DNA of 59,542 bases from a virus (taxonomy: Duplodnaviria > Caudoviricetes). The notes below the pieces were generated by a model, which searched no databases, was not told the DNA's origin, and saw nothing but the letters and a program-made list of their open reading frames with translations. Position numbers and translations under genes: made by a program. Shown here piece after piece: positions 978 to 36,141 of the stretch (position 1 is its first letter; each line of letters begins with the position of its first letter). The stretch covers positions 1 through 59,542 of the IMG/VR virus record IMGVR_UViG_3300030329_002202; one strand, written 5' to 3'.

Positions 978-1517
978 TTAAATTATAATTCTTTTAGGTG
1001 GCTTTCTATTAGAGCCTCTGTATAGTTGCTCTTCCTTTACTTTAAAAACCCCCTTAAGTTTATTTGCTCCCCTTTTATCATGCATAACCCCTGCACCACT
1101 TAACATTTCATGCTCTAGTGTTTTTCCACCATTCTTATATTTACTAACCTTAACGCCATTTTTATTAAAAGGTTTTGGCTTCTTTTTTAATTTCACGCTA
1201 CCCCCTTTTTTCATAATACTCGCTGCAGCTCCTGCTTTTTTTAATGCATCATTATCACCTTGAGCCTCTTTTTTATCATTTATCTTATCAACTAAGGATT
1301 TACCACTCTTATCTCCTTGTGCTCCTCCACCAATTACTTTCACTCTCATTATATTTCCACCTCCTTCTCTTTGGCTCTGGTTAGCTTTTTCTTTTTCAGC
1401 CTCCCTTTTCTTGGCTCTAAGTTTTTTGGCCATCAATCCTATTGGTGTGATTGAGGCTGCAGCCTGCATTAAACCACCAAGAAAGTATTTGTTTATGTAT
1501 TTTCTATTTTTTGCCAT
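978..1517 (-). CDS. Lys/Gly-rich basic protein with xxGG motifs (putative internal virion protein)
   Basis: Start moved to ATG 1517 (MAKNRKY) because the longer ORF overlaps the upstream gene; contains KYFLGGL, MKKGGSV and YKNGGK. Confidence 0.65.
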   Translation of the reverse strand: MAKNRKYINKYFLGGLMQAAASITPIGLMAKKLRAKKREAEKEKANQSQREGGGNIMRVKVIGGGAQGDKSGKSLVDKINDKKEAQGDNDALKKAGAAASIMKKGGSVKLKKKPKPFNKNGVKVSKYKNGGKTLEHEMLSGAGVMHDKRGANKLKGVFKVKEEQLYRGSNRKPPKRIII

Positions 1518-1725
1518 TACCTGCAAATTTTTCAACGCCACTAATACCAAAACAGCCAAGAACAACCCACACAAATGAATCGTATACAAATTCATTGATA
1601 ACAAGGTCTTTTCCTACCCAGCCAGTTACTAAATCAGCAACCATAATTAAAACCATTATTAAGAATGCTATAAAACCTATTATAGCTTTCTCATTCCAAT
1701 TATTATCATTTTTAAATATATCCAT
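1504..1725 (-). CDS. Small two-TM membrane protein (holin-like)
   Basis: 73 aa with two hydrophobic helices and a basic C-terminus. Confidence 0.6.
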   Translation of the reverse strand: MDIFKNDNNWNEKAIIGFIAFLIMVLIMVADLVTGWVGKDLVINEFVYDSFVWVVLGCFGISGVEKFAGNGKK

Positions 1726-1781
1726 AATTAATTGTTTTTAATCTGCAAAGGGAACATCCTCATTTAAATCAAGAGGTTCCT

Positions 1782-2150
1782 CTATTTTTTTGCTTTTTTT
1801 TTACCACCATGATACTCTACTGCATGCCCTTCACTAATTAATGTTTCGTTTACATTAATTGGCATATCTAGGTTGTCAGGATATACAGTTAATACACCTA
1901 ATACCCTACCATATTTACCAACCTCCTTACTCTCTACCTGTAAATTACCCATATCAAGTATTTCAGTTAATCTATATTTAGCAGCTAAGCCAAGTTTTTT
2001 CTCCTCTAAATCTCTAGTTCTAGACTCTGGAGTATCAATACCTGCTAATCTTACCCTTTTATGAACTGATATATCAAATCCTAGGTCTATATTAACATCT
2101 ATAGTATCTCCATCAATAACCCTATCTAATTTAGCTTTATAAGTATACAT
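1782..2150 (-). CDS. Thermonuclease (SNase family)
   Basis: Motifs RVIDGDT, RLAGIDTPE and GKYGRVLG. Confidence 0.9.
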   Translation of the reverse strand: MYTYKAKLDRVIDGDTIDVNIDLGFDISVHKRVRLAGIDTPESRTRDLEEKKLGLAAKYRLTEILDMGNLQVESKEVGKYGRVLGVLTVYPDNLDMPINVNETLISEGHAVEYHGGKKKAKK

Positions 2151-2935
2151 TAGTTCATTATATATTTAATTTTACCATCCTGTATGTATATACTTTCTGG
2201 TCTTCGTATTGGTTGACCTAGAATATTATACATAAGACCATCATTTTCTGATTTTTCTAATATTTCCTGTATTGATGAGTTGCATGGCATACCTGTATCG
2301 CAGTCTATATATTCAGTTTGTATAACCTCAATATAGTCTATTACAGTATCAACAACAAATATTTCTATATATTCTGTCTCTACTATTGTATCATATATAG
2401 TAACCTCAACTTCCTCTATTACATCTATAAATAAGGTATCTAAAGCTCCTTCCATCCATAATGTGTCTGTCACATATACATATTCTGGAACCATAACTTC
2501 TACTTCAAATGTGTCAACCACTATTTGAGTTATATATTCAGTTTCAATAATTGTATCTAACTGTATAATTGTTTCATATATGTAAAAAGGAACTTCAACC
2601 TCTATAGTATCAGTAATAAATACATCAACATATTCTATTACAGGTATTTCCACATATACAGTATCGCATTCAGGTGGAGGAGGTGCACACTCCTCAGGAG
2701 AAGTAGGCACAGCACCATTTTCATCACCTGCATCCACACAATCGACCCACCCATCATTTAGCCATGAGTTTATAACACAACCATTAGGACTATACTGGGT
2801 CCAGTTAGATGGGTCATCGCCACAATAATAACCTTCTACCTCAACACAATCCATACATAATTGCTGAAAATCATAATCTTGACCCTTTAAAACAAAACTT
2901 AACAATGCAAGTAAAACAAATAAAACCTTTCTCAT
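2150..2935 (-). CDS. Secreted protein with LDL-receptor-A-like module, acidic beta repeats and a T9SS-like C-terminal tail
   Basis: Signal peptide followed by Q; WLNDGWVDCVDAGDE; repeated DT-I/V-I/V-E-T-E units; C-terminus YNILGQ...IYIQDGKIKY. Confidence 0.6.
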   Translation of the reverse strand: MRKVLFVLLALLSFVLKGQDYDFQQLCMDCVEVEGYYCGDDPSNWTQYSPNGCVINSWLNDGWVDCVDAGDENGAVPTSPEECAPPPPECDTVYVEIPVIEYVDVFITDTIEVEVPFYIYETIIQLDTIIETEYITQIVVDTFEVEVMVPEYVYVTDTLWMEGALDTLFIDVIEEVEVTIYDTIVETEYIEIFVVDTVIDYIEVIQTEYIDCDTGMPCNSSIQEILEKSENDGLMYNILGQPIRRPESIYIQDGKIKYIMN

Positions 2936-2937
2936 AA

Positions 2938-3966: not shown

Positions 3967-3984
3967 TGTTTTTATTTTTACCTG

Positions 3985-3992
3985 TAAATATA
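3985..3992 (-). promoter_or_regulatory. Bacteroidota -7 promoter element variant (TATATTTA)
   Basis: One mismatch from TAnnTTTG; intergenic, 18 bp upstream of the ATG at 3966. Confidence 0.45.
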
Positions 3993-4012
3993 CGAATTTT
4001 TAACTAAATTAA

Positions 4013-4573
4013 TTAATCAACCCCTATTACTTTTTCAATACTAGCTGTTGCTACACCTTTTACTTTTGCAATACTAGAGGCACCTACGTTATTAACCTCA
4101 TGTCCATATCCTGCTGGAGCAGCAGTATAATCTACTGTTACATATAGTTCAACCAATGTTATACCCTTATTATCAGGGTCTATTTTAACACTACAGTCAT
4201 TTATATATGCGTATGTTAAAGCTGATGAACCATCTTGTTGTGTTGTTCTAGCAGTTGTTGTTTGAGTTGTTTGTGAACTAGTCCAGTTTTCATTTTCAGC
4301 AGCAAAGGCACCATCACTTGAGTGTATTAAAGATAATTCACACGTTGAAGCTCCTGCTCTACCAGCAGCACCATTCGCTGATATTGTAAAACTATTTATT
4401 GTAGCTCCACTTAATGAGGAATCTAAATCTTCTAATACAGCAGTCCAATTACATGTTGTATTATTTTGCACTACAGCAGTTGTTGGGTTACCATCAGCAG
4501 CTTTTGGATATGGGTCTTGAGTCCACCCTGTTTGAGAAGTTGTTGATGTTGGTCTTAATATTACTGTTGCCAT
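4013..4573 (-). CDS. Putative virion structural / fibre-associated protein
   Basis: Thr/Ser/Ala-rich beta-type composition, directly downstream of a fibre-like gene. Confidence 0.5.
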   Translation of the reverse strand: MATVILRPTSTTSQTGWTQDPYPKAADGNPTTAVVQNNTTCNWTAVLEDLDSSLSGATINSFTISANGAAGRAGASTCELSLIHSSDGAFAAENENWTSSQTTQTTTARTTQQDGSSALTYAYINDCSVKIDPDNKGITLVELYVTVDYTAAPAGYGHEVNNVGASSIAKVKGVATASIEKVIGVD

Positions 4574-4576
4574 ATC

Positions 4577-6079: not shown

Positions 6080-6090
6080 CTAATAAGATT

Positions 6091-6813: not shown

Positions 6814-6850
6814 TTTATTATAATTTTAAAGATTATCAATTAATTATTGT

Positions 6851-7221: not shown

Positions 7222-7224
7222 AAA

Positions 7225-8610
7225 ATGCCAAGAGTAGGAAAAAAGAAATTCCCATACACCAATAAGGGTTTAGCAGATGCAAAAGCTTATGCTAAGAAAA
7301 ACGATTTACCAATAATCTATACTGAAGATAATAAACCAAGCATGGCTATTCCAAGTTATGCTGAAGGTGGTGGTGTAAGATTTTATGAAACTCAGTCACC
7401 ATCAGGTGGTGGTGGGTTAGACCTTCATCAAGCTGAGGCCATGGATTGGTCAGGTGGTGCAAGAAATACAGAAAAATTTAAAGAAAAGCATAAAGAAAAA
7501 AAGATAAGCGAACTTGATAATACAACTGATGAAACTATTGAGGAAACGAATACATGTCCAGAGGGGCAAAAGCCAGATGGTCAAGGAGGTTGTATCCCAA
7601 TAGTAGAAGAAGAAGGTGATGAAACTGGGGGAGAAACTGGAGATGAAACTGGGGGAGAAACAGGTGGAGAAACAGGAGGAGAAACAGGAGATGAGACTGG
7701 TGGCGAGACAGGAGATGAGACTGGTGGTGAGACTGGTGGTGAAACAGGAGGTGAGACAGGCGATGAAACAGGAGGGGTTACTAATGAAACAGGAGGGGTT
7801 ACTAATGAAACTGGAGGAGCTACTGATAATGAAGGTGCGAGAAGCAGCGAGTATGTTCCACAAACAATTAGTAGAAGAGACATGGAAACAGATATAACTC
7901 CACAGTCTTCTATGCGTAGAGAAGAATATGTTCCTCAGTCTACATTTGGTCCAGGAGAAAATCCTAACATTGGAAGAGGAGAGGGTGATTATAGTCATGA
8001 AAAAAAGAACTTAATTCCTCAAGCTAAGAAGGCTGGTATAGGATTAGGTGGTTCAGGAGCAGGTGATGGTGGCCAAACATTAGGTGATTTAGGTGGAGGT
8101 GAAGGTTTTGGTAGTAAGTTAAAGGGGGATGGTGAGAGTCTTGCAGACAAGATAAAAGATAAAACCTCTGGAGGTGGAGGAGGAAATAACCCACTTGAGG
8201 CTATAAAAGAAAAGGCTGAAGAGGTAACAGATGAGGTCTCAGCTAAAAAAGGTGCTGTAATAAAGGTTAATAAGAAGAATGGTAATAATACTCAAGATGC
8301 TAATTATGTTTTTAGCGATGAATATAAAAGAGACATGAAGGAGTGGACAGCAGCTAAAAATCAAGAAACTGTTGACAAAATGGAGTTTAACAAAGTATTT
8401 CCTATGATGAGAAAATCATATGGTCCTGACCACACATTTAAATGGAGAGGTAAGATGTACACCACTGAAACAAAAGATGACCAAACAAATAAAGGTAAAA
8501 TGCATAAAGGTGGTAAGGTAAGAGTTAATAAAAAATCAGGAAAAAAAGCACAAGGAGTGGCTATCATTATAGCTATGGGTAAACCTAAAATTAATAGAAA
8601 GAAAAAATAA
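7225..8610 (+). CDS. Low-complexity putative internal virion protein
   Basis: 461 aa; G[GD]ET repeats, xxGG motifs, FNKVF..MRK...TFKWRGKMYTTE module, basic termini. Confidence 0.7.
   Translation: MPRVGKKKFPYTNKGLADAKAYAKKNDLPIIYTEDNKPSMAIPSYAEGGGVRFYETQSPSGGGGLDLHQAEAMDWSGGARNTEKFKEKHKEKKISELDNTTDETIEETNTCPEGQKPDGQGGCIPIVEEEGDETGGETGDETGGETGGETGGETGDETGGETGDETGGETGGETGGETGDETGGVTNETGGVTNETGGATDNEGARSSEYVPQTISRRDMETDITPQSSMRREEYVPQSTFGPGENPNIGRGEGDYSHEKKNLIPQAKKAGIGLGGSGAGDGGQTLGDLGGGEGFGSKLKGDGESLADKIKDKTSGGGGGNNPLEAIKEKAEEVTDEVSAKKGAVIKVNKKNGNNTQDANYVFSDEYKRDMKEWTAAKNQETVDKMEFNKVFPMMRKSYGPDHTFKWRGKMYTTETKDDQTNKGKMHKGGKVRVNKKSGKKAQGVAIIIAMGKPKINRKKK
7615..7812 (+). repeat. Coding tandem repeat: 13 x 12 bp (G[GD]ET) followed by 2 x 21 bp (GGVTNET)
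   Basis: Read directly in the DNA and the protein; copies differ at synonymous sites. Confidence 0.95.
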
Positions 8611-8615: not shown

Positions 8616-11420
8616 ATGAAAAAAAATAATACATCATACACATTAACACAGGATGATATAAGAATTTTACAACAAAATCCTTGGATGTGGGAAGGTATGG
8701 GTGATTCATTAGAGTCAACATCAGGCAGTGGTTGGTTAATTAAAGATATACTTGGACCACATGCTAGGCCTAATAAAAATGTGCAAGTAATCACAGATGG
8801 TAGTGGTAAAAAAATATTAAGCTGGAGAGGTTATAGATTTGTTATACCTCAAGACAGTAATCTTTACAATGAACTTGGACCAAATCTTGTTGCTAATCAA
8901 GAGAATAGAACTAGAGAGGCTAATCTTAGAAAAAAAGAGGTTGTTGAAGCTGGACCTATAACAGGTGGTAAGGTTGTTGATGAAACGATTTCAATAAAAC
9001 CTAAAAAGATTAATACTGTAACTCCTCAAGATAACGAACCACAAAAATTACCTCCTCGACCAGAACCAGTAGTGGTTGATAGCACAACGACTAATATTAA
9101 TAATGATGGTGAAACTGTACCTGACAGAGAGGATAGAGAATATATTCCACAAACTAGAAGAAACGATGAGGACATGATTCCACAAAGTAGAAGAGACTAC
9201 TACGCTGGTGGTACTGTAGAGTCTTTTAGAAGACGTAGAGGTATGGGGTATAACCCTGATGCATATTACAGCAGAAGAGGTGGAGTTAACGAAGGTTGGG
9301 GTTTAAGAACAAATGAAATGTCTGATGTGCAAAGAGATAATAGAAGACAGGTTTCTGCAGAACATGATAGAAAAAGAGGAACAACTAGAACTTACGATGA
9401 CCAAAATAGACTGGTTCGTACTAATAAACGAGGCAAGGTTGTTGGTGGGACTAGAGAGCAAAGACTAGCTAGGAATAGAAAAAATGCACAACAAAATCAA
9501 AACACTGGATTGACTATTCCTAATGAAAGCATTCAACAAAAGAATGTACCAACAGTAGGTAAAACTCGTAAAACTGAAGCAACACGAAAACCATTAGGGG
9601 GTGATGAAAAAGTTTATCAAGGTGGGACTTTGGATGAGGTTACAGTTACTGCTAAAAGACCAGTACCAAATCCTGACAAAAGGTCTTACTGGGTTGGTGG
9701 AAAGCAAATAACAAAAGAAGAGCACGATAAGTTAACTGCAGGAAGTAAACCAAAACCAAGGTCAGAGTGGGTTACAGCAAGTAGTCCTGATAAATCTTAT
9801 AAAAATATAACTAAAGATATGTCAGACGCAGATAGAAAAAGATTTTACCCAAATGTGAAACCTGATAAAGAAGGAGAAAGGCAAGCTAAAAAGGGTGCTA
9901 TTGTAAAACCAAATAAAAATAATGAAACCATGAAAAATAAAACTAAACCTAGAAAACTTTCTAGATTTGAGAGAAGATTTAAAAAAGCTAGGGAAAAGGG
10001 TAAAGAAACATTTAAGTATAGAAAAAGAAGATTTGACTTAACTGAAAAGAGAGGGGTATATCATACAGGACTTAAAACTGAAGAAGGAGGCAAAAAGCCT
10101 GCTGATAAAGAAGAAAGAAGAGCTGATACAATTCCCAATGATGGTGATAGAGGCAAGGAGGGTACAAAGAGACCAGTAGATATAGGTACAGGAGGTCAAG
10201 GAACTGGAACTGATTATGACGATGGAGGTGTTACTAAAGGTAATTATGGTGGTGGCTCAGATACACCACAAGTTGTAAGAGATAAGGAAATTACGTATGA
10301 TAGAAGTTGGATTAGAAAACCAAAAAAACAATCTTCTAGCAATAATGATACTAACGATTCTAATGAAACGAATGACACTAATGTTACAAACGATTCTCAA
10401 CAAACAGAAAAGCTAACTAAGCAAGAGAAGTTTTACAGAAGACAACAAAGAAGAGAAGAAAGAGAAGCTAATAGATTAAAAAAGAAAGAAGAAAGGTTAG
10501 CTAGAAGAAAGTACAGAAAAGAGGCTAGACAGTATAGAAGAACAATGAGAAGAAAAGCTAGACAGGAAAGAAGAGAAGCTGCAGGCCATAAGTTTACAGG
10601 TGGTAGAAGAATTTCTCCAAGAAGATGGTGGAAAAACCTTAGAGATAAGCTTGGTATAGGTGCACCTGGTAGAGGTAATTTGAGAGATTGGGACTCACCA
10701 ACATCTTTTCCTACAACAAGAAAAGAAATGCCTGTAAGAACATATAAGGATGGAGGTAAACCAAAATCAGCTCAGTATATGTCTTATGATGATATGGTAA
10801 AAGACCCAAAGTATCAAAAAGCTTCAAAGAGTAAAGATTATTCTAATTTTACCTATTGGGAAGAAACTCAAGGTTATCCTGGTGGACCAAAAACTAAACA
10901 AGTCATGAATAAAGAATTTAATCCTAAAATGAAGCCATCAAATATGAAAGGTGGAGGAAAGGTAGCAAAAAGAAAATATCTTGGTGGTGGTAAAGTAAAA
11001 AAATACTCTAATGGGGGAAATATTCCTGACATGACCAAGAAAAATCTTACAATGAGTGATTATAAAAAGTTTTTAGATGCTAGAGATAGAGATGCAGCAA
11101 ATCTTAAAAGAATAAATGAATACAATGTTAAGAATAAGGTGGATGGCAAAACAACTCGTAAGATGGTTGACTCTAAAAACCTTAAACCTGGTGACTCTTG
11201 GAAGCAGTCATGGAAAAGCCCAAAAAAACCAAATAACAAGCAATTAGTTAGAATGCTTATGAAAAAAGGAGGAAGAACTTTGTTAAAAAGGCTAGGTTGG
11301 TTAGGTGCTGCAATAACTGCTGCTCAGGGTCTAGGTATTATTTATGAAGGTAGAAAAAATCTAATGCCATCTTTAAAAGATAGAGCAGAAAAGAATCCTA
11401 ACTTTGGTAGAAAAATATAA
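8616..11420 (+). CDS. Large Arg/Lys-rich, probably disordered protein (putative internal virion / DNA-condensing cargo)
   Basis: 934 aa, highly basic; at least seven xxGG/AKKGA motifs; LDEVTVTA segment. Confidence 0.7.
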   Translation: MKKNNTSYTLTQDDIRILQQNPWMWEGMGDSLESTSGSGWLIKDILGPHARPNKNVQVITDGSGKKILSWRGYRFVIPQDSNLYNELGPNLVANQENRTREANLRKKEVVEAGPITGGKVVDETISIKPKKINTVTPQDNEPQKLPPRPEPVVVDSTTTNINNDGETVPDREDREYIPQTRRNDEDMIPQSRRDYYAGGTVESFRRRRGMGYNPDAYYSRRGGVNEGWGLRTNEMSDVQRDNRRQVSAEHDRKRGTTRTYDDQNRLVRTNKRGKVVGGTREQRLARNRKNAQQNQNTGLTIPNESIQQKNVPTVGKTRKTEATRKPLGGDEKVYQGGTLDEVTVTAKRPVPNPDKRSYWVGGKQITKEEHDKLTAGSKPKPRSEWVTASSPDKSYKNITKDMSDADRKRFYPNVKPDKEGERQAKKGAIVKPNKNNETMKNKTKPRKLSRFERRFKKAREKGKETFKYRKRRFDLTEKRGVYHTGLKTEEGGKKPADKEERRADTIPNDGDRGKEGTKRPVDIGTGGQGTGTDYDDGGVTKGNYGGGSDTPQVVRDKEITYDRSWIRKPKKQSSSNNDTNDSNETNDTNVTNDSQQTEKLTKQEKFYRRQQRREEREANRLKKKEERLARRKYRKEARQYRRTMRRKARQERREAAGHKFTGGRRISPRRWWKNLRDKLGIGAPGRGNLRDWDSPTSFPTTRKEMPVRTYKDGGKPKSAQYMSYDDMVKDPKYQKASKSKDYSNFTYWEETQGYPGGPKTKQVMNKEFNPKMKPSNMKGGGKVAKRKYLGGGKVKKYSNGGNIPDMTKKNLTMSDYKKFLDARDRDAANLKRINEYNVKNKVDGKTTRKMVDSKNLKPGDSWKQSWKSPKKPNNKQLVRMLMKKGGRTLLKRLGWLGAAITAAQGLGIIYEGRKNLMPSLKDRAEKNPNFGRKI

Positions 11421-15878: not shown

Positions 15879-16529
15879 ATGAAGATACCAAAAAATTATT
15901 TTTTAGTTCAGGTTGAAAAACCATATGATGACACAATTGAATTTAATGGAAGAGAAATTACATTAGATATTAAATTTGACCCATATAAATTTGCTAGACA
16001 ATATGGTATTGTTTATGAGAATCCAGGATGGCTTCCAGAAGGTTTAGAGTTTGATGTTAAAAAAGGGGATAAAATATATTTTCACCATCTTGTTACAGGA
16101 GCTAAACCTGGAGTTACTATAGATAAAAAATTTGAGGATGAGTCTGGGCAGCAACATAAGAGTGCAAATCTTGTAGAGTGGGCAGATGATGAAAATGTGT
16201 ATAAAGTTCATTGGCAACAGATATATGCTAGAGTTAGAGATGGGGAGCTTAAAATGCTGCATCATTGGAATTTTGTGAAACAAAAGACTGAGTCTGAGGA
16301 TAGTATAAAAACAAAATCTGGAATCTTTATGAAACCTGAGGTTGAAGATATAACTCTACATGGAAATATAGTATATATGAACGATTGGTTAAAAGACCAG
16401 GGTGTTAAGATAGGAGATGAAGTTATATTTTCAGAAAACTCAGAATATGACATGAAAATAGAAGGAGAAAAACTTTTAAGAATGAGAAATGAAGATATAT
16501 TAGCATTATACAACAATGAAGGAAAGTAA
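15879..16529 (+). CDS. groES: GroES-like co-chaperonin with two GroES-like halves
   Basis: KTKSGIFM...GVKIGDEVIFSENSEYDMKIEGEKLLRMRNEDIL; N-terminal half has DVKKGDKIYF. Confidence 0.8.
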   Translation: MKIPKNYFLVQVEKPYDDTIEFNGREITLDIKFDPYKFARQYGIVYENPGWLPEGLEFDVKKGDKIYFHHLVTGAKPGVTIDKKFEDESGQQHKSANLVEWADDENVYKVHWQQIYARVRDGELKMLHHWNFVKQKTESEDSIKTKSGIFMKPEVEDITLHGNIVYMNDWLKDQGVKIGDEVIFSENSEYDMKIEGEKLLRMRNEDILALYNNEGK

Positions 16530-18873: not shown

Positions 18874-21360
18874 ATGGAATTTATAGAAAATGCTTTTGAA
18901 AAAATAAAAAAGGTAGGTGGATACCCAAGTCCATTCGCAACACCAGAAGAAAAGGAAAAAAACGAATATGGATTAGCTTATTTCAAAAAAATGTATCATG
19001 ACTGGAAAGATAATGCTGACATGAAAGTTGACAGCAGAAGGTCTAGGTATGTTAAATCTAGAAGTTACGCACAAGGTTCTCAAAATGTTTCTAAGTATAA
19101 AGATTTGTTGGATGCACAAGGAGATACATCATATTTAAATCTAGACTGGACACCAGTAAATATAATTCCTAAATTTGTTGATTTAATAGTTAACGACTTA
19201 TCTAATCAAGAATATGAAATTGTAGCAAATGCTATAGACCCTATATCAGAGACATTAAGGGAAAGAGATAAGAAATCTCTTTTTGCTAAAATGTTGGTTC
19301 ATCCAGGAATGAAAGAATTGAGTAAAGCTACTGGATACGATTTACAAAAAAAGGGATATGTCCCCCAAAACCAAGAGGAGTTAGATATTCATATGGCTCT
19401 TAACTATAAGCAGTCAACAGAAATAGCTGTAGAAAATGGTATCAAATTTGTTATGGACATTAATAATTATGATGGAATTAAGAAATCAATGATTAGAGAC
19501 CTAGTTGTTTGTGGTATTGGTGCTTGTAAAACAACTATAGACCCAAACACTGGGGTTAAGATAAAACATGTAGACCCTGCTAATCTAGTTACATCTTACA
19601 CAAACAATGAAGATTACAGTGATATTCAACACGCTGGAGAAGTGTATACCATAACTATAGGTGAATTAAAAAGAATAGCAGGAGACCAATTGAGTGAGCA
19701 GGATTATGAGAAGATAGCAAAAGAGTTTGCAGGAAAAAATCACAATGACCAGATAAGTCCTAATTATGAATCATACATGAATGAGTATCAAGATGAGTTT
19801 GAATATGATAAATATAGGGTGACAATAATGGACGCTGAGTTTATGTCTGTTAATCAAATCAAGTATGAAAAAAAGAAAAATGCTTATGGTGGTTATACTG
19901 TAACTAAGAAAAAGGGTAAATATAAAAAGCCTAAGAAATCTAAATTTGAAAGAGAACTTATACAAACATCTGTTAAAGTTGTTTATTCAGGAAAATGGAT
20001 TGTTGGAACTGATTATGTTATAAACTATGGTTTGGCTAAAAACATGATGAGAAATAAATCTAACTTAACAGAAACAAAATTATCATATATTATATATGCA
20101 CCAGGCACACATAAAATGGTGAATAAGTCAATGGTCGAAAGAATGATTCCATTTGCAGACCAAATACAGCTTGCACATTTAAAACTTCAACAGGTAATAG
20201 CAAAAGCTAGACCTAAGGGGGCAGCATTTGAATTAGGCTCATTAGAAAATGTATCTAAAGGTGATGGTGGTTCATTCACCCCTTTAGAGTTGCAGGAAAT
20301 ATATGACCAGACAGGTAATATATATTATAGAACAATGAGTGACACAGGAGAGGCCTCTGGTGCAGTTCCTGTTCAAGAATTAGAGAATGGTATTGGTGGA
20401 GATATGGAAAAGCTTATATCTATATATGCTCATAATTTAAATATGATTCGTGATGTGACTGGTGTTAATGAAGCTAGGGAGGGTGCTAAACCACCAAGTG
20501 AAGCTTTGGTTGGTGTTCAAAAATTACAAATAATAGCGTCTAATAATGCTACTAAGAATATAAATGATGGTTATTTAAGTATAACAAAGAGGGTCTCTGA
20601 GTGTACTGTTATGAGACTACAAGACGTTTTAGAAAGCAAAAAGAAGAAGAAGTCTTATATGAATGCTTTAGGTAAATCAACAGTATCTATGTTTGGGGTT
20701 AATAAAGATATATCTTTACATGAGTTTGGAATAACTCTTGATGTAGCACCAGATGAGGAGGAGAAGCAACAGTTAGAAGCTAACCTACAAATGTCTTTAG
20801 CTCAAAAGGAAATAAGACTAGAAGATGTTATAACAATAAGAAGAGTTAAAAATGTAAAGCTTGCTAATCAGGTTTTAATGTTTAGAAGAAAGAAGTATCA
20901 AGAAGAGGAAGAGAGAAAAGCTAAAGAGGCACAAAAAATGAATGCTGAAATACAGAGACAAGCTAATGAACAACAGTCTCAGTTAAAGATGCAGGAAGTA
21001 CAAAGCATGGCTCAAGTTGAACAAGCTAAAATAAATTCAAAAGCTCAAGCTGAGTTACAAAGGTTGGAAGCAGAATTTACTTTAAAGAATCAACTAGAAG
21101 ACATGAATCACCAAAGAAGGATGAAAGAGATTGCTCTTAATAATTCTGGAAAAAAAGATGTAGCTGACGTATCAGGTAAAATAAAATTAGATGCACAAGA
21201 TAAAGCTGCCTATAATCAATCTAGGTTGGTGGAGCAAAAAAGAGATAGGGCACTGCCTTTAACTGATGTTGTATCAGACCCTAGCATGCCTAAAGCTATG
21301 CCTAGGATTATAGAGGAATCAGGTCCAAAAGAAAACCCAATGCCAAATATTTTAAAATAA
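18874..21360 (+). CDS. Portal protein
   Basis: 828 aa directly after terL; IIPKFVD, IRDVTGVNEAREG, long Gln-rich coiled-coil barrel. Confidence 0.88.
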   Translation: MEFIENAFEKIKKVGGYPSPFATPEEKEKNEYGLAYFKKMYHDWKDNADMKVDSRRSRYVKSRSYAQGSQNVSKYKDLLDAQGDTSYLNLDWTPVNIIPKFVDLIVNDLSNQEYEIVANAIDPISETLRERDKKSLFAKMLVHPGMKELSKATGYDLQKKGYVPQNQEELDIHMALNYKQSTEIAVENGIKFVMDINNYDGIKKSMIRDLVVCGIGACKTTIDPNTGVKIKHVDPANLVTSYTNNEDYSDIQHAGEVYTITIGELKRIAGDQLSEQDYEKIAKEFAGKNHNDQISPNYESYMNEYQDEFEYDKYRVTIMDAEFMSVNQIKYEKKKNAYGGYTVTKKKGKYKKPKKSKFERELIQTSVKVVYSGKWIVGTDYVINYGLAKNMMRNKSNLTETKLSYIIYAPGTHKMVNKSMVERMIPFADQIQLAHLKLQQVIAKARPKGAAFELGSLENVSKGDGGSFTPLELQEIYDQTGNIYYRTMSDTGEASGAVPVQELENGIGGDMEKLISIYAHNLNMIRDVTGVNEAREGAKPPSEALVGVQKLQIIASNNATKNINDGYLSITKRVSECTVMRLQDVLESKKKKKSYMNALGKSTVSMFGVNKDISLHEFGITLDVAPDEEEKQQLEANLQMSLAQKEIRLEDVITIRRVKNVKLANQVLMFRRKKYQEEEERKAKEAQKMNAEIQRQANEQQSQLKMQEVQSMAQVEQAKINSKAQAELQRLEAEFTLKNQLEDMNHQRRMKEIALNNSGKKDVADVSGKIKLDAQDKAAYNQSRLVEQKRDRALPLTDVVSDPSMPKAMPRIIEESGPKENPMPNILK

Positions 21361-29200: not shown

Positions 29201-32200
29201 ATGCAAGATAAAAGGAATTTTCAAGGTGGACTTAACAGAGATGATGATGCCAGGGTTATGCCTGATGGAGATTATTTCTATGCCCAAAATATAAGAATAT
29301 TATCTTCTGAGGATAATACAACTATGCTTGTTGAAAATGTAAGGGGTACAACCAGTGAAACTTATTCAGAAGCAACATTAGGTTCTGCACGTGAATATAA
29401 AGTTATTGGTTCTTATGAAGATAAGAAAAAGGAGTGTCTTTATTATTTTATATGGAACGTTCAAGCATATCACCTTATATTAGAGTATAATATCAACACA
29501 GACACAATATCTACTGTGTATAGGGATGCAGGTGAAGAAATCAATAATGTTCTTAGATTTGATAAAAATACCCTTATAACAGGTATTAACAAAATTGATG
29601 ATTTATTATATTGGACTTGTGATAATACATATATAGACAATAAGGGGGAGCTTAGAAATAATGAACCAAAGTATATTAACGTAGAAAAAGCTAAAACAGG
29701 TTGGTCTGCTTATTACGCAAATGGAAATTACAATGCTAATCCAAGAACAGCATTTCCCATAGAGACATCTTACCCATTTGAGTTTTTCGCAGCAGCAGAT
29801 GGTTCAACTTATAGTCTTGTTGATTTTGAGCATAAATTAAAATATATTGATGTGTGTAAATATAAACCACCACCTCCAATATATAAAAACCAGACACCAA
29901 TTAGAAATGTATCTACCAGCCCTTATACACCAATAGGTCCTGTTGGACCAATAATTTTACAACAAACTATGCAATATGGGCCAGAAATACCTGCAAATGG
30001 TATAAGTTATTCAAATATACCACTTAGTCTAGTGGAGAGTAGGGACGAGTTAGAATTTGCTTATAAGAAAAATAATCTATATGGTCACGTTTGGCAGTTT
30101 GCTTATAGATATATATATAAAAACAATGAGCAAGGTGCTTATTCTGAATGGAGCTGGGTTCTTCCACCACCACAATATGGAACAAACATGGTGGATGAAG
30201 GTAAACAGAACTTATATAACGAAATAAGAGTGTGGTATCACAATGGGCCTGCTGATGTTGAGAAAATAGAGATAGTTGCTAGAAAGTGTTCTTATATAGA
30301 GACATCTCCAGATGAGGGTAATAAGGGTGAGTTTTACCTTATAGCAACTGTAGATAATTATTATTATGATTCAACATGGTCTGAAACTACTGATACTTCT
30401 GATACTGGTGGTCTATATTATGGCTACACATCTATGCAAAATGCAAACACTCCATATATAAATACTTACAATACAGATGGTTCAAGCACACAGCATCAAG
30501 ACCAACCAACAGGATATATAGATTTTAGAAACGATGGTGTGTACAGTCAAGTTGACCCTGTTGCTTTTGGAAAGTTGTTTGACCAGGTTCCTTTAAGGGC
30601 AAAAGCTCAAGAGATAATTGGAAAAAATAGATTGGCTTATGGTAATTATGTAGATGGATTTGACCAAGTAAAGCCACATTTTGAACTAATGCCTGAATAT
30701 GGAAATGAAATCCAGTTTACAATAATAAACCCAACAAGCGATAATAGTGATACTAATTGGTACACTTTAGGTGGTTCTAGTTTTGATGCTGGTATAATAC
30801 AGGAATACGATTTGACTGAAGAAAATTTTGGTGGTAGCACAAAACTTGGTGCTGACTCTATAAATGCCCACCCAAACTGGAATGGATGGATGTATCTCCC
30901 TGACCACCCAGAGATGACTTATGATTCTCAGGCACAACCAAGAGAGGCTCTGGCGATTGATGCGAGAGCTTTTCAATTACAAAGTATAATAACCTTTCCA
31001 ACAGTAGCACAGTTTGGTCAAAAATTTAGAATTAGAGTTGGACAGAAGCTTAGGTATAAGCAAGATTGTAAAGGTGCTTGGTGGCCTAATTATTTTAGTG
31101 ATGGATTTCTTGATTATAAATATTTTGGTTATCAAATAGATTTAGAAAAAACAGTAGGTGGAGGTGGAATACCTGCTCTTATTGATGAATTTATTGAAGA
31201 TATAAAAATAATATGTAACTACGACCAGGTGGCTAACCCCCCAACTATACCAGACTATAGAGGCACTGAAGAGACTAACCCTTACTGGGGAGAACCAATA
31301 AGACCTTATTGGAGGGGTAGTGATAGTTGCGATTCTGATTGCACTCCTAACTATGGAGATTGGGATGCTCCACTCCAAACATCAGCAGAGATGCATTTAA
31401 AAACAATAGAGAAGGTTGATAGTGATTTTGGAAATGATAATGTTATAAGAATGTTTTGGCACCCATTTGGACAAACTATAAGCGAAAGCACTGGTTACCC
31501 AAATGGTAACTGTTCTCAAAATTATCCAATAATATATTATAGAAGGTGTACTGGGGAAGAAACAACCAATCTACATGTTATGAAAAGTAGTAATGGAACT
31601 TATAGAGATTTTACTGAATGTGGTAGTTGTAATTGTTCATCAGGATACAGGACTTTTGACTGTAATGATTTTGCTTGTCAACCATGTGATTTTTGTTGTC
31701 GAGCTAAAGCTTGGGATGATACTGAAAGGTACATGCCTAGTGCTCCAGAGTGGCACTCTAAATTTACATATTCCCCTGCACTAGAGCAAGGAACTATATG
31801 GGAAGACTCAAATAACACAAATGATACATTAGAAAACAATATTAAAATTGTAGATGATGCATCTACTTTTAAGTCTGGTGCTTGGCATAGATTTGGTTTG
31901 GTTTATTATGACGAAAAGGGAAGAAGTTCTACTGTTATGTTAAATGAACCTACCCCTGCTGCCCCTGACAGAAACTCTTCTGTTTATGTAGCATTCCCAA
32001 CAGAAAGAAAATATAAGCAGTTTCTAGATGAGGATGGTAGTTTTAATTATACAAACAATGCATTAAGTAATGCAGAAAAACTACAACCTGCTGATATTGC
32101 GTGGAAGATATATCATAAACCACCTGTTTGGGCGAGGTATTATCATTGGGTATACGCAAGAAACTCTTCTGTTGGTGAGTTTCTGCAATTTATGATTGAC

Positions 32201-34885
32201 GCTGCTTATGTTAATAAAGGAGCAAAAGCTGGAACCTCCCAAGGTGAGGCAACTGCAGATTCAAAAATATACATATCATTAAACACAATGGATGGTAGAG
32301 ATTGGAGTTATGGAAATAGAAATAGGTCTCTTGTTGGTAAGTGGAGTTTTGCTGAGGGCGATAGAATAAGGATATTAACAGATTCTAATGGTACTGTAAT
32401 GACAAATCCTGATACAGATGTTCAAACATATTATGATTTTAAAATCAGTGAAGTTGGTCACTATCCTGGTAGGTTTGATTATGACCCAAATGCCCCTGAA
32501 GATATGGAGGATGGTAGGTCAGGTAAAGTTAAATTAAGTCCTGACTCCCCTGCTGGTGGTGAATTAAATCAACCAGCTAAAGCAAAACCTGGAAAGTTTA
32601 TTATATTAGATGACCCAAAAGTGCCAGGATATAATATAGACAGTGAGGTGGATGGTGAAATAACAAAATGGGCTGGGGTTAGAGTTGAAATATATAGGCC
32701 TAAGAAAAACACAAATGAAGAAGAAAGTTTATATTATGAATTTTCTGAAAGGCATGCTATAGTTGAACCTGGAACAGAAGCCAGAAGACATGCAGGTGGT
32801 GCAGGAGGGCAGGTTCAACAACCAGATGCTGACTATATAGCTGGAGACAATGTTGATTCAGACGTTCCTGCAACAGGTAGATTTAGGAGAGGTGATGTAT
32901 GGTATAAATCTAGGGACCTCAGCACTGCTGCTGTAACTGTCCCTGGTCAGTTTTTTGAAGATTATTTCTTAAACGACTTTATGCAAACTAATCATAATAA
33001 TATAGGTAGGCCACATATATCTAGTCCTTATGCTAAAGCTAAAAGAAGAGAGGCTACTATAACATATTCTGATGTATATACTCTTGACACACAATTTAAT
33101 GGATTGCATTCTTTTAATTTTAGTCAAAGACCATATATGGATTATGATATAACAAAGGGTTCTATACAAAAACTTGTAGCTACAGAAACAAACCTTGTTA
33201 TGATGCAAGAAAATAAATGTTCTACACTAATGATTAGTAAGAATATTATAAATTCTCCTGATGGAGATGCTGGATTAACACTATCTACAAATATTCTACC
33301 TGAAGAGCAGACTTACACAAGTGGTGATTTTGGTCCATGCTTAAACCCAGAATCTGTTGCTGTTCATGAACAGACAATATATTTTATAGATATAAGGAGA
33401 GGGGCTGCTATTAGAATAGGTGGTGATGGCATTACAGTCATTTCTGATTATAAAATGAAGGACTTCTTTAGAGACAAGATGGATTTATATGAAAATATAT
33501 TAGAATCCCAATATGATGATTTACTAGATGGTGGATTATTTATACTAGGTGGGTATGATAGGAGACATGGTGAGTATGTTGTCACATTCCCAAATGTTTA
33601 CTCAAACACTGTAGGAACAACAGATGAGGAGTTGGCTGTTTGGACAACTAGTGATAGGGATTTTGACACAAACTCATTAAGGGAAGATGGAGTTACAGCC
33701 CTCAACTTAAATACTGATGTGTTAAGAGACAACGTAAGAGATGCAATTTATGATGAAGATGTACCAATTATGATAAGAGATGGAGGTAGACGTGTCACAA
33801 TAGCAAACAAAGCTGAAACCATAGCCTTCAATGAGGGGGCTAATAAATGGACTAGCTTCTACACTTTTTACCCTGATTACTATGCGACATTAAATAGAAT
33901 ATTTATATCATTTAAAAATGGTATATTATACAAGCATGATTCTGACGCTACTAATCACACAATGTTTTACGACAATCCATACCCAGATGAATCCATAATA
34001 GAGTTTCCTTTTAATGGAGATGTTTCTTCTGTAAAAACCTGGAACAACTTAACCTTAGAGGGTGCAGATAAACAAGAGGTTATTCCACTTGTTAACACAT
34101 CTACAAATGGTGGTAACGCATCAGTGGTAGCTACAACAGGTAGTGCAAATATAGAGGCTACAAATATAAACTTCCAAGCAAACGATATAGCTGTTGGAGA
34201 TTCTTTATGGTATAACGATAATGGAACTCTTAGAACTTTAGGTGTTATTACTGCTATAACTGATGCAGACACAATTGTTACAAGTGTTGGTGAAGTTAAT
34301 GCTTTTATTGCAGCTAGTAGTACATCATCTGGAAATGCTTTATTTGATGTGTTTGTGATAACTGCTGACACAACAATGTATAAAGCAAAGTTTGAAACAA
34401 ATATCAACAGCTCTGAAGTAACACACAGAACATCTTATGAGAACACAGCTACAAATGCAGGAACTTGGGTAACAAGAGAAGAGGTTGCTAGCACACATAT
34501 ACCATTTGGTAATACAAACACATCAGGTGGAGAATATTTTGGTATTGGAAGCTGTACATGTGCTGACGATTCAACAACATTAACAGGTGCTTCGTTTTTG
34601 TCTGCAGGATTACAAAGTGGTGATATTATTTATTATGATAACAGTGGAACAGAAACCATAATTGGAACAATAGATAGTATAACTGACACTGTAATAACAC
34701 TAACTGGTAATGCTTCTGCAAGTTTAACAAATACATTTATGTTTGTTGTAAAAAATGCCTCAATAGATGGAGACAGGTTAAAGGGTCATTATATGTGGAC
34801 AAGGTTAACGAAAAGAACAAAAGATAAAGTTCACTTATTTGCTGCAAATGCAAATGTAATTAACAGCGAACTTACTAATAAATAA
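29201..34885 (+). CDS. Tail stabilization / muzzle-nozzle protein (P22 gp10 / crAss-like)
   Basis: N-terminal NFQGGLNRDDD..PDGDY.YAQNIR; VPLRAKAQE..NRLAYGNY; FGLVYYDEKGRSS; GPCLNPES; W.SFY.F.P. Confidence 0.8.
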   Translation: MQDKRNFQGGLNRDDDARVMPDGDYFYAQNIRILSSEDNTTMLVENVRGTTSETYSEATLGSAREYKVIGSYEDKKKECLYYFIWNVQAYHLILEYNINTDTISTVYRDAGEEINNVLRFDKNTLITGINKIDDLLYWTCDNTYIDNKGELRNNEPKYINVEKAKTGWSAYYANGNYNANPRTAFPIETSYPFEFFAAADGSTYSLVDFEHKLKYIDVCKYKPPPPIYKNQTPIRNVSTSPYTPIGPVGPIILQQTMQYGPEIPANGISYSNIPLSLVESRDELEFAYKKNNLYGHVWQFAYRYIYKNNEQGAYSEWSWVLPPPQYGTNMVDEGKQNLYNEIRVWYHNGPADVEKIEIVARKCSYIETSPDEGNKGEFYLIATVDNYYYDSTWSETTDTSDTGGLYYGYTSMQNANTPYINTYNTDGSSTQHQDQPTGYIDFRNDGVYSQVDPVAFGKLFDQVPLRAKAQEIIGKNRLAYGNYVDGFDQVKPHFELMPEYGNEIQFTIINPTSDNSDTNWYTLGGSSFDAGIIQEYDLTEENFGGSTKLGADSINAHPNWNGWMYLPDHPEMTYDSQAQPREALAIDARAFQLQSIITFPTVAQFGQKFRIRVGQKLRYKQDCKGAWWPNYFSDGFLDYKYFGYQIDLEKTVGGGGIPALIDEFIEDIKIICNYDQVANPPTIPDYRGTEETNPYWGEPIRPYWRGSDSCDSDCTPNYGDWDAPLQTSAEMHLKTIEKVDSDFGNDNVIRMFWHPFGQTISESTGYPNGNCSQNYPIIYYRRCTGEETTNLHVMKSSNGTYRDFTECGSCNCSSGYRTFDCNDFACQPCDFCCRAKAWDDTERYMPSAPEWHSKFTYSPALEQGTIWEDSNNTNDTLENNIKIVDDASTFKSGAWHRFGLVYYDEKGRSSTVMLNEPTPAAPDRNSSVYVAFPTERKYKQFLDEDGSFNYTNNALSNAEKLQPADIAWKIYHKPPVWARYYHWVYARNSSVGEFLQFMIDAAYVNKGAKAGTSQGEATADSKIYISLNTMDGRDWSYGNRNRSLVGKWSFAEGDRIRILTDSNGTVMTNPDTDVQTYYDFKISEVGHYPGRFDYDPNAPEDMEDGRSGKVKLSPDSPAGGELNQPAKAKPGKFIILDDPKVPGYNIDSEVDGEITKWAGVRVEIYRPKKNTNEEESLYYEFSERHAIVEPGTEARRHAGGAGGQVQQPDADYIAGDNVDSDVPATGRFRRGDVWYKSRDLSTAAVTVPGQFFEDYFLNDFMQTNHNNIGRPHISSPYAKAKRREATITYSDVYTLDTQFNGLHSFNFSQRPYMDYDITKGSIQKLVATETNLVMMQENKCSTLMISKNIINSPDGDAGLTLSTNILPEEQTYTSGDFGPCLNPESVAVHEQTIYFIDIRRGAAIRIGGDGITVISDYKMKDFFRDKMDLYENILESQYDDLLDGGLFILGGYDRRHGEYVVTFPNVYSNTVGTTDEELAVWTTSDRDFDTNSLREDGVTALNLNTDVLRDNVRDAIYDEDVPIMIRDGGRRVTIANKAETIAFNEGANKWTSFYTFYPDYYATLNRIFISFKNGILYKHDSDATNHTMFYDNPYPDESIIEFPFNGDVSSVKTWNNLTLEGADKQEVIPLVNTSTNGGNASVVATTGSANIEATNINFQANDIAVGDSLWYNDNGTLRTLGVITAITDADTIVTSVGEVNAFIAASSTSSGNALFDVFVITADTTMYKAKFETNINSSEVTHRTSYENTATNAGTWVTREEVASTHIPFGNTNTSGGEYFGIGSCTCADDSTTLTGASFLSAGLQSGDIIYYDNSGTETIIGTIDSITDTVITLTGNASASLTNTFMFVVKNASIDGDRLKGHYMWTRLTKRTKDKVHLFAANANVINSELTNK

Positions 34886-34896
34886 ATAATAATTAC

Positions 34897-34904
34897 TATA
34901 TTTG
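34897..34904 (+). promoter_or_regulatory. Bacteroidota promoter -7 element (TATATTTG)
   Basis: Intergenic, just upstream of the internal virion protein genes. Confidence 0.6.
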
Positions 34905-34911
34905 TAAAATT

Positions 34912-36141
34912 ATGGCTAAAACTAGAAAAAATTTCAAAAAACATATGATGTATAGCAAATCAGGTGAAGGCAAAATGGCTAAAACCTATGAAGAGCATAT
35001 GTTGTTAAAAAAGAAAGGATGGGGTCATACAAAGCCAAAAAGAAAATTAAAAGGTTTACAGGCTGCTAAATACTTTATTGGTGGGCTTATTTCTGGTATA
35101 AAGGGAGCTAAACAGTCTAAGCAGGATATAGCTAAGGCTGAAGCTGATAGGCAGGCTCAATTAGCTAAAGAGGAAGAGCTTAGAAACAGTAGGCAAAAAT
35201 TAACCATGTCTCCTGAAATCGAGAAGATGAAAGAGGGACTTGGTGGTACAGAGATACAAAGAAGACAAGAGGCTGCTGAAAGAGCAAGAGCAGGTGCTAT
35301 GGCTGCTGCCACTAGGGGTGGTTCTAGGGTAGACCCATTTGCTGCTGCTAGAGCTGGAGAAGCACAGGAAAGTAAGTTAGCAACTGAACAAGCCACTGCA
35401 CAGAGAGCTGGATTAAAAGCAGGCGTTGAAGAAAGAGGAAAATTAAGAACTATGCAGGAAGATAGGCAAAAGGCTGATTATGCTAGACAAGCTCAATTGG
35501 CTGATTATGCTAGAGAAGATGTGATGGCTGCTCAATCTAATTTAGCATCTTACCAACAACAACAATATGGTGCTATTGACGCAGGTATTGGTACAGTTAC
35601 CAGTATGTTTGCTAAAAGTGGGGCTAGAGTAAAATTAAAAGATAAAATGAGAAAAAAATATAGAGAGGGTGGAAAACCAAATAATAATAAAATGCCAAAT
35701 CTTCCACCAGAAGGACTAGAGCAGGCTATACCTGTTGGACCAAACCCTTCAAAAGACCAGATGGATGCAGGTGAAGCTGAAGTTACTCCAGGAAAATTCT
35801 CTCATGAAAAGAACCCTATTGATTTAGTTCAGAAAAATGGAGAAGAGGGAAAGCCTGAAAAGATAGGTGAAATGACAGGTGGTGAAGCAATAGTTCCACC
35901 TAAAAATGTAAAACAAATCAGAAACATGATTAAAACCAATGATGGTCAGGGTTTAGTTAGATTAATGAACAGATTGTTAACTAAGTGGGATAAGGAGGCT
36001 GGAGAAGACCCAGAGTCAGAAGCTGAATTTGGAAAAACAATGAAAGCTAAACATGGTCACGTAATTAAACCAAGGGTGCCATCAGGTAAACAAAAGTTTA
36101 AGTGGAGAAACTTAGGTAGAGGAACAATAGGTAAACTTTAA
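34912..36141 (+). CDS. Internal virion (ejection) protein
   Basis: Ala/Gln-rich helical core; KYFIGGL, YREGGK and EMTGGEAIV motifs; follows the muzzle gene. Confidence 0.65.
   Translation: MAKTRKNFKKHMMYSKSGEGKMAKTYEEHMLLKKKGWGHTKPKRKLKGLQAAKYFIGGLISGIKGAKQSKQDIAKAEADRQAQLAKEEELRNSRQKLTMSPEIEKMKEGLGGTEIQRRQEAAERARAGAMAAATRGGSRVDPFAAARAGEAQESKLATEQATAQRAGLKAGVEERGKLRTMQEDRQKADYARQAQLADYAREDVMAAQSNLASYQQQQYGAIDAGIGTVTSMFAKSGARVKLKDKMRKKYREGGKPNNNKMPNLPPEGLEQAIPVGPNPSKDQMDAGEAEVTPGKFSHEKNPIDLVQKNGEEGKPEKIGEMTGGEAIVPPKNVKQIRNMIKTNDGQGLVRLMNRLLTKWDKEAGEDPESEAEFGKTMKAKHGHVIKPRVPSGKQKFKWRNLGRGTIGKL

Follow-up and report, generated by a model that had tools for sequence, protein, structure and literature searches.

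A short [YFM]-x-x-G-G motif in the C1-like cargo protein and three further proteins of a crAss-like marine podophage

Why should four proteins of one phage, with no evident kinship, repeat the same short peptide? The question is raised by the virus record IMGVR_UViG_3300030329_002202, which was analysed over its whole length of 59,542 bases (31–38% G+C; 'the window' below) and is a complete 59.5 kb crAss-like marine podophage. An earlier reading of the letters without database searches (the sequence-only reading) had listed about 17 peptides of the form [YMA]-x-x-G-[GA]-x-[VI] in four open reading frames (ORFs) and had proposed that they tag internal virion proteins for loading or processing. 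All 17 are present in the translations of 978–1517 (minus strand) and of 7225–8610, 8616–11420 and 34912–36141 (plus strand), referred to here by their lowest coordinate. Comparison of related sequences indicates that the recurring peptide is a real, selected short linear motif that characterizes the C1-type cargo (ejection) protein of crAss-like podophages, and that in this marine clade it has apparently spread into three further unrelated proteins that are largely of low complexity and probably unfolded.

How a podophage chooses the proteins that it loads, where it stores them and in which order it ejects them is an open question. The cryo-electron microscopy atlas of a crAss-like phage places cargo in both capsid and tail without providing a loading rule, and a conserved and easily spotted peptide would offer a concrete handle on cargo loading.

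Enrichment and form of the motif

The pattern as originally written fits 11 of the 17 listed peptides and one unlisted copy, but misses the other six. It gives 12 matches in the 1983 residues of the four ORFs versus one in the 16,750 residues of the other 52. Shuffling of whole proteins yields a mean of 0.42 matches and shuffling inside 40-residue blocks a mean of 0.38, with none of 5000 shuffles of either kind reaching 12; the simpler core Y-x-x-G-G is observed 11 times with 0.77 expected (0/5000 shuffles). The other 52 ORFs are not enriched once composition is taken into account (one match seen, 2.56 expected). Since the pattern was defined after inspection of the data, these window figures overstate the significance, and sounder support comes from conservation among homologues and from a related 52.7 kb record (G001), the four homologous carriers of which serve as an independent replicate. 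The G001 carriers contain seven matches to the pattern (0.62 expected) and 26 to [YFM]-x-x-G-G (3.10 expected), neither of which is reached in 2000 shuffles. The carrier sets of two further records, G003 and G004, were chosen for having matches and are not independent.

These counts bear directly on the possibility that the motif has no function and is a by-product of slippage-prone Lys/Gly-rich sequence. The carriers are indeed of low complexity, tandem arrays of the motif expand and contract between homologues and ORF 7225 contains an obvious Gly/Glu/Thr repeat. However, shuffles that preserve local composition never reach the observed counts, which are not those of a compositional artefact; homologues of only 30–45% identity keep copies unchanged where they align; and the motif also occurs in non-repetitive contexts and in gp45 of Bacteroides phage crAss001. 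This explanation is highly improbable and is largely refuted by the shuffles and the conservation.

The carriers are otherwise unrelated, as had been claimed: the best E-values of all six BLASTP pairs range from 0.03 to 6 and every match is motif-sized, the sole near-significant one (ORF 978 against ORF 34912) being an eight-residue stretch at the first copy of ORF 978. Their description as basic holds for three of them, with isoelectric points (pI) of 9.9–10.4, but not for ORF 7225 (pI 5.24), which is net acidic because of its acidic Gly/Glu/Thr repeat.

The 17 copies fall into three sub-types. The first, K-Y-F-[LI]-G-G-L followed by hydrophobic residues, lies near the N-termini of ORFs 978 and 34912; the second is [AM]-K-x-G-[GA]-x-[VI]-K followed by further Lys or Asn, and the third is K-Y-x-x-G-G-K. 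In ORFs 978, 8616 and 34912 the second stands ahead of the third at a distance of a few to 20 residues, an order that recurs repeatedly in the G001 carriers. The core can be written [KR][KR]-[YFM]-x-x-G-G; frequently [AM]-K-x-G-[GA]-x-[VI]-K accompanies it. A logo built from 101 unique sites in 84 homologues of ORF 34912 and 80 unique sites in 13 members of the ORF 8616 family reads [KR]-[KR]-[YFM]-x-[KDEG]-G-G-[VKML]-x-K, with a variable residue after G-G. In the window, only ORF 978 has a copy within its first 30 residues; the first copy of ORF 34912 begins at residue 53, and a pattern scan found no N-terminal copy in ORFs 7225 and 8616. Base coordinates of the copies given below were derived by hand from residue numbers. 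No published description of the motif was found in a narrow literature search or in the accessible sections of the crAss001 structure paper (PMC10172136), in which the word 'glycine' does not occur.

The C1-like protein and the other carriers

ORF 34912 (34,912–36,141, plus strand; 409 residues, pI 9.9) lies directly after the gene for a muzzle-domain protein and upstream of a C2-like gene and a giant gene, which is the position expected of C1 and makes it the positional analogue of crAss001 cargo protein 1. It has 84 metagenomic homologues, 20 of which are covered by the alignment counts that follow. The first copy (residues 53–59; 35,068–35,088) stands at the start of a long helical region, and its Tyr54 and Gly57 are invariant in 20/20 sequences. 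A pair of copies follows at residues 234–241 and 250–255 (35,611–35,676), where many homologues have a Peptidase_S74 domain inserted; homologues without an insertion there retain F-[GA]-[KR]-x-G-[AS]-x-V-[VK]-K as their second copy, and the third is kept in eight of the 20. The last copy (residues 379–386; 36,046–36,069), of the A-K-H-G-x-V-x-K-P type, is family-wide and is kept as A-K-H-G-x-V-x-K-P-R. Residues 290–363 (35,779–36,000) form a conserved block, T-P-G-x-F-S-H-E-x-N-P-I-D ... K-I-G-E-M-T-G-G-E followed by helices, with 13 invariant residues in 51 sequences; its N-terminal part extends as T-P-G-x-F-S-H-E-x-N-P-I-D-[IL]-V. At least one [YFM]-x-x-G-G is present in 79 of the 84 homologues and at least two in 44. 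This pattern indicates purifying selection on the copies while their flanks diverge.

A scan of IMG/VR with the conserved block gave 147 relatives among 167 candidate stretches, from which 80 loci were kept. The gene order in the related loci is a muzzle-like gene, the C1-like gene, a gene for a protein of ∼450–780 residues and a giant gene. A [YFM]-x-x-G-G within residues 2–30, after a run of Lys/Arg, opens 46/80 C1-like ORFs versus 10/1022 other ORFs, and seven of those ten are a ∼600-residue gene just downstream in one lineage. A copy also lies within the 16 residues before T-P-G in 54/80 C1-like ORFs. The N-terminal leader further heads an 837-residue protein of G001 and additional ORFs of G001, G003 and G004. 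Eight of 42 ORF 34912 family members match PHROG 13764, annotated 'virion structural protein', with ORF 34912 itself falling below threshold.

Two further features of this family concern its domains. The Peptidase_S74 domain (PF13884), a self-cleaving chaperone domain, sits between the helical body and the C-terminal block (P0014, P0015, P0032 and others), which suggests that in those phages cleavage separates a trimeric helical stalk from the C-terminal part. Residues 10–38 of ORF 34912 (34,939–35,025) are predicted as a module of a strand hairpin and a helix, with a predicted local distance difference test score (pLDDT) of ∼90; it is kept in 7/20 aligned homologues, and a similar H-[WM]-M-x-x-G-E-G-K ends the 837-residue protein of G001. 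The ∼600-residue protein at the C2 position, a second family unrelated to C1-like proteins, opens M-K-x-S-K-R-[KN]-F-x-x-G-G-[YFS]-Y-E-N-K (distant loci L038, L042, L055, L061, L062, L067 and L071).

The link to C1 extends to crAss001. Its gp45 is a virion protein encoded after the muzzle gene gp44 and includes an N-terminal membrane helix, a helix (residues 214–245) that binds within the tail barrel, and a compact domain (425–552) that interdigitates with the SH3-like wing loops of the portal, with a linker (246–424) running between the tail barrel and the portal-bound domain; it has been proposed to exit N-terminus first and to form a trans-envelope channel (PMC10172136). Copies of the motif occur in gp45 at residues 17, 260, 370 and 559, i.e. 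in the leader, twice in the linker and just past the portal-bound domain. Of eleven crAss001 structural and cargo proteins that were checked, ten have no copies and gp47 has five in 2341 residues. A search seeded with gp45 residues 400–560 gave only sequences at least 98% identical, and diverse C1 domains were taken instead from GenBank phages: in eight of nine an [FY]-x-x-G-G stands just after the portal-bound domain, and in five of nine G-G-x-I-x-I-K-K-x-N-R-G-K, which resembles the second sub-type of the window, stands before it. Within the domain, residues 449–475 of gp45 contain S-H-E-E-N-P and then G-x-P-N-L-V-E-x-G-E, invariant in nine diverse crAss phages.

The basic character of most carriers invites the explanation that nothing reads the motif specifically and that it serves as a structural turn: polycationic unfolded head proteins would condense or neutralize DNA, and a Gly turn with an aromatic residue or Met would help the chains to lie on it. 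Three of the four carriers have a pI of 9.9–10.4 and contain 20–25% Lys plus Arg, Lys/Arg dominate logo positions −1, −2 and +7, and copy number varies freely, as it would for multivalent polymer binding. Among 43 diverse C1-like sequences (63 unique sequences reduced at 80% similarity), however, distant lineages have copies in acidic contexts, which argues against the core being no more than a basic patch for binding DNA; conserved copies in crAss001 gp45 are likewise in acidic or neutral surroundings. ORF 7225 is acidic overall. A generic turn would not require the exact x-x spacing or the invariant positions, and the strict N-terminal placement is left unexplained. We regard a DNA-coating turn as unlikely on balance.

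ORF 8616 (8,616–11,420, plus strand; 934 residues, pI 10.2) has eight [YFM]-x-x-G-G copies, together with a helix-like block rich in Arg and, at the C-terminus, a hydrophobic stretch. Its copies include residues 195–201 (9,198–9,218); 424–431, of the [AM]-K-K-G-A-x-V-K type (9,885–9,908); 710–715 (10,743–10,760), in which Gly713 and Gly714 are invariant in 13/13 family members; a tandem cluster of three at 777–803 (10,944–11,024), where homologues have longer arrays; and 882–887 (11,259–11,276), just before the hydrophobic stretch, with Gly886 nearly invariant. The 12 metagenomic homologues are 28–46% identical to it and the family alignment has a mean column identity of 30%, yet all 13 members carry 4–12 copies, among them tandem arrays of differing length, and nine of the 13 have the N-terminal leader. 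An IMG/VR scan with ORF 8616 returned no relatives, and a tblastn search of 50,697 phage records with ORFs 34912 and 8616 gave no match.

ORF 7225 (7,225–8,610, plus strand; 461 residues), the first large gene of the rightward arm, has basic ends with the acidic repeat between them, and its residues 1–29 match PHROG 33179, of unknown function. Its copies are at residues 45–51 (7,357–7,377), kept in the G001 homologue; 340–347, of the [AM]-K-K-G-A-x-[VI]-K type (8,242–8,265); and 426–432 (8,500–8,520). The G001 homologue has 768 residues and six copies. The acidic repeat itself is G-E-T-G-[GD]-E-T at approximately residues 125–200 (∼7,590–7,830), with a G-D/G-N repeat at the equivalent place in G001. 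ORFs 7225 and 8616 also have in common a second short repeat, E-Y-[VI]-P-Q-[ST]-x(2-3)-R-R, with variants ending T-P-Q or I-P-Q, at 7,830–7,940 (ORF 7225, approximately residues 205–240) and 9,120–9,200 (ORF 8616, approximately residues 170–195); it is multiplied in G001 and in metagenomic homologues of both.

ORF 978 (978–1,517, minus strand; 179 residues, pI 10.4) shares the leftward arm with genes for nucleases and replication and belongs to no Pfam or PHROG family in library scans. Residues 1–113 and 331–384 of the 837-residue G001 protein match it with all three copies kept, which supports the start at the ATG at 1517. The copies are at residues 10–16, of the K-Y-F-[LI]-G-G-L type and followed by a hydrophobic stretch (1,470–1,490); 102–108, of the [AM]-K-x-G-G-x-V-K type (1,194–1,214); and 127–132, of the K-Y-x-x-G-G-K type (1,122–1,139). 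The G001 protein additionally contains a PHROG 7595 domain of unknown function at residues 687–774 (locus L090, 9,510–9,775; E = 1.8e-35), which ORF 978 does not have.

Matches to the combined pattern per 1000 residues number 1.84 in the window, 2.08 in G001, 1.54 in G003 and 1.17 in G004; the values are 0.33 in MW202828, 0.40 in the first 50 kb of elemovirus F and 0.32 in bases 30,000–72,534 of phi38:1. No ORF has two matches to the first pattern set in MW202828 or in the first 50 kb of elemovirus F, and the combined pattern finds two matches apiece in three large ORFs of elemovirus F and phi38:1. The C1-like proteins of phi38:1 (gp99), elemovirus (gp20) and MW202828 (14,291–15,199) open directly with a hydrophobic helix and contain no basic leader, motif or C-terminal block. 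A comparison of gene content between motif-bearing and motif-free genomes gave too many differences to point to a 'reader' of the motif.

Those motif-free proteins bear on a possible role after ejection, in which the motif would contact an envelope component or a host protein, or would form a junction for a Gly-rich hydrophobic helix that inserts into the membrane as a DNA conduit. In many C1-like proteins the N-terminal copy is immediately followed by a Gly/Ala-rich hydrophobic segment of ∼20 residues, the proposed trans-envelope channel of gp45 (PMC10172136) would fit such a role, and ORF 978 and its 837-residue relative are encoded in the non-structural arm. Against this, the hydrophobic helix persists in the motif-free relatives, which have no leader; in the families of ORFs 8616 and 7225 most copies stand beside no hydrophobic segment; and no host partner can be named. 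Such a role seems quite improbable.

A possible role in cargo docking and threading

The sequence-only reading had gone on to propose that internal virion proteins are addressed by one general system. The part of this proposal that ties the motif to virion cargo stands: ORF 34912 follows the muzzle gene, its family reaches a virion-protein PHROG, gp45 has four copies and the N-terminal leader occurs in several unrelated families. The general address tag is unsupported, since the giant and C2-like cargo proteins do without the motif and one carrier is encoded in the replication arm.

The reading that we favour, with a probability of roughly one in three, makes the motif a flexible element by which extended cargo chains dock or are threaded near the portal–tail channel. 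In its favour are the tie to C1, the place in the leader, the copies that adjoin the conserved block, the multivalency and the copies in acidic surroundings in distant lineages. In C1-like proteins it occupies the basic N-terminal leader, the linker and the site directly against the conserved C-terminal block. The motif may act there as a flexible turn or hairpin element; a hairpin turn of the [ND]-G type with a cross-strand hydrophobic pair might be read from the pattern and is absent from the models. Such elements would let extended cargo chains touch, weakly and repeatedly, a part of the virion at or near the channel, the candidate partners being the portal wing, the tail lumen or the capsid wall, and the chains would be stored beside the exit and leave it N-terminus first.

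Several results weigh against this reading. An AlphaFold2 model of ORF 34912 based on 51 sequences has a mean pLDDT of 67, with a confident module at residues 10–34, confident C-terminal helices at 330–380 and long helices at 53–233, but shows no hairpin at any motif copy: residues 46–61, 229–239, 252–303 and 381–403, which take in every copy and the strand part of the block, have pLDDT values below 50. The same low-confidence pattern is seen in a 262-residue family member with the motif abutting the block (mean pLDDT 57). The conserved block is predicted to be unfolded alone, as might be expected of a piece that folds on a partner. A Foldseek search of the PDB with the ORF 34912 model gave no matches at E ≤ 0.001; the best, an ejectosome chain of phage PhiM1 (E = 2.7), was taken as coiled-coil noise. 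Kinship with gp45 is also faint by profile: Pfam PF25725 (crAss_CARG1) matches gp45 with E = 2.3e-66, but does not match ORF 34912 at E-values up to 1 or any of 44 diverse domain sequences. For the block against the portal-bound domain of gp45 hmmsearch gives E = 0.61, and hhalign picks out the S-H-E-x-N-P stretch of gp45 each time with a probability of 0.7–8.6%, the best alignment covering 11 columns; a PDB profile search found no match, and the nearest named Atlas cluster is crAss_CARG1, with a weak 0.77. Given these weak statistics, ORF 34912 is treated as a protein that works like C1 and not as an established member of the C1 family. In crAss001 only residues 214–245 and 425–552 of gp45 are resolved (PMC10172136), so that rigid, symmetric docking does not extend to the flanking copies.

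The distribution of the motif among cargo proteins counts against it as well. The giant ORF 38040 (38,040–48,806, plus strand; 3588 residues), which is probably ejected cargo, is not enriched (four copies, 2.15 expected) and has no match to [YMA]-x-x-G-[GA]-x-[VI]; the C2-like ORF 36154 (36,154–38,037, plus strand; 627 residues), which adjoins ORF 34912, has no copies with 0.40 expected; the cargo protein gp46 of crAss001 has none; and ORF 978 is on the opposite strand, in the replication arm. Counts in other structural proteins of the window are two in the muzzle protein (1.31 expected), none in the portal (0.24) and two in the capsid protein (0.52).

A bolder version of the docking and threading reading, which we consider distinctly unlikely, would make the leader plus [YFM]-x-x-G-G with its internal repeats a portable ejection or threading signal that recruits unrelated unfolded proteins into the portal–tail channel and sets their order of exit, much as disordered N-terminal signals do in type III secretion, with the T-P-G-x-F-S-H-E-x-N-P-I-D block as the portal-side anchor. 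Two other resemblances were dropped: that to the GroES mobile loop, as motif-free relatives also encode GroES or GroEL, and that to the KOW motif, as no SH3-like fold is predicted. The motif is a mark of C1-type cargo proteins in gut crassviruses and in their marine relatives alike and can be used to predict cargo in uncultured phages; should it turn out to be no more than a cleavage site or a turn of proteins that coat DNA, it would still delimit a new group of internal proteins, fast-evolving and carried by abundant marine phages.

Genome setting and comparison with known systems

The rightward (structural) arm of the window spans 6,898–50,398 and includes the large terminase (PHROG 6681, E = 7e-166), a capsid protein of the SU10/crAss type and members of several families annotated 'virion structural protein'. 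The portal protein, a candidate docking partner, is encoded at 18,874–21,360 (plus strand; PHROG 6547, E = 1.4e-139), and the muzzle-domain tail protein of 1894 residues at 29,201–34,885 (plus strand; Pfam crAss_MUZ PF25731, E = 5.7e-20). The giant protein combines ART-PolyVal and Peptidase_M15_3 domains with a match to PHROG 22602, 'virion structural protein'. Genes of the leftward arm encode an SNase-like nuclease, a DnaB helicase, a DUF1064 protein, a PDDEXK nuclease and a DnaA-like protein. The closest GenBank phages are distant, with terminase identities of 48.7% to MW202828 and 38.4% to the Flavobacterium elemoviruses; Cellulophaga phages are more remote by the same measure, and all 118 matching records are below 60% identity.

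Other glycine-rich or unusual segments occur in these neighbours. Muzzle-like proteins (29,201–29,260 in the window; loci L004–L023) start with a conserved K-R-x-F-x-G-G-L-[ND]-[RK]-D-x-D, in which the spacing from the aromatic residue to G-G is one residue shorter than in the motif studied here. Residues 1–60 of the giant protein (38,040–38,230) are two tandem units of ∼30 residues, A-L-K-D-x-Y-x-L-F-K-x-G-G-Y-x-G-S-x-E-D; the same repeat, without G-G, opens the giant proteins of several related loci. The two F-K-x-G-G of these units were rejected as motif copies, as they belong to a separate 30-residue repeat with a G-G that is unconserved in relatives. A GroES-like protein (15,879–16,529; Cpn10 at residues 125–211) has a 124-residue N-terminal extension. 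No GroEL gene was recognized in the window; MW202828 and the elemoviruses encode both GroES and GroEL.

Several known systems invite comparison. The internal proteins of phage T4 and the core proteins of adenovirus are precedents for proteolytic processing during assembly, and a G-G site might serve the same end here, a phage or host protease cutting at or beside it so that the carriers give small basic peptides or lose their leader. A hydrophobic residue a few positions before G-G recalls the G-G-type sites of adenain and of papain-like and African swine fever virus proteases, the residue after G-G is variable, as would fit a processing site, and tandem arrays and an N-terminal leader would suit removal by a protease. 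The tape-measure protein of phage T5 is cut after Arg1127, the next residues being A-E-G-G (PMC10038345). The spacing in the logo, [YFM]-x-x-G-G, is however one residue longer than in the [MIL]-x-G-G or [MIL]-x-G-x-G sites of those proteases. No protease family was found among 52 ORFs scanned with Pfam and 37+8 scanned with PHROG, many of them unannotated, apart from an M15 cell-wall peptidase, and a clan CE or similar enzyme was likewise not found in these scans. An I-x-x-G-G copy lies inside gp45 425–552, a single contiguous modelled domain of mature virions, and is thus uncut there. T5 pb2C was rejected as a relative of the carrier families, with profile E-values of 0.38 and 0.28 against the two domain families. 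A processing site is an improbable explanation.

The capsid targeting sequence of the T4 internal proteins IPI–IPIII is a single N-terminal copy that is removed by the prohead protease. The likeness lies in a short N-terminal peptide common to unrelated basic proteins that are carried in the head and injected with the DNA. N-terminal copies are present in 46/80 C1-like ORFs and 9/13 members of the ORF 8616 family, and in ORF 978 alone among the four carriers of the window. Here, in contrast, copies are multiple and also internal and C-terminal, a prohead protease was not found in library scans of the window ORFs, and the packaging of three of the four carriers is putative. Encapsulin cargo-loading peptides are usually single and C-terminal and bind a defined pocket on the shell protein; they resemble the motif as short Gly/hydrophobic peptides that dock unrelated cargo inside an HK97-fold shell, and differ in that nothing here points to the capsid protein as the partner.

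Two sets of phage proteins are closer. The C1-like proteins Cellulophaga phage phi38:1 gp99 and Flavobacterium elemovirus gp20, short proteins grouped with PHROG 13764 and assigned by position and annotation only, resemble ORF 34912 in a Gly-rich hydrophobic N-terminal helix, a helical body and a position after a muzzle-like gene; they differ in the features described above as absent from them. The fullest likeness is to crAss001 gp45 (PF25725; PDB code 7QOG and four further entries; Bayfield et al. 2023, PMC10172136), also encoded directly after the muzzle gene. It opens with a basic N-terminal leader that contains hydrophobic-x-x-G-G and with a hydrophobic helix rich in Gly, its long middle is helical or disordered, and a later block, S-H-E-x-N-P followed by G-x-P ... 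G-E-[AV]-[IV], is flanked by motif copies. It differs in its length (842 residues versus 409), in having no significant sequence similarity to ORF 34912 and in that crAss001 has the motif mostly in gp45 and gp47, whereas here it is found in three proteins besides the C1-like one. Cargo or ejection proteins and short targeting peptides are thus already known in kind, and what appears to be new is the motif itself, the form that it takes as a leader and the way in which it has spread to additional unfolded proteins.

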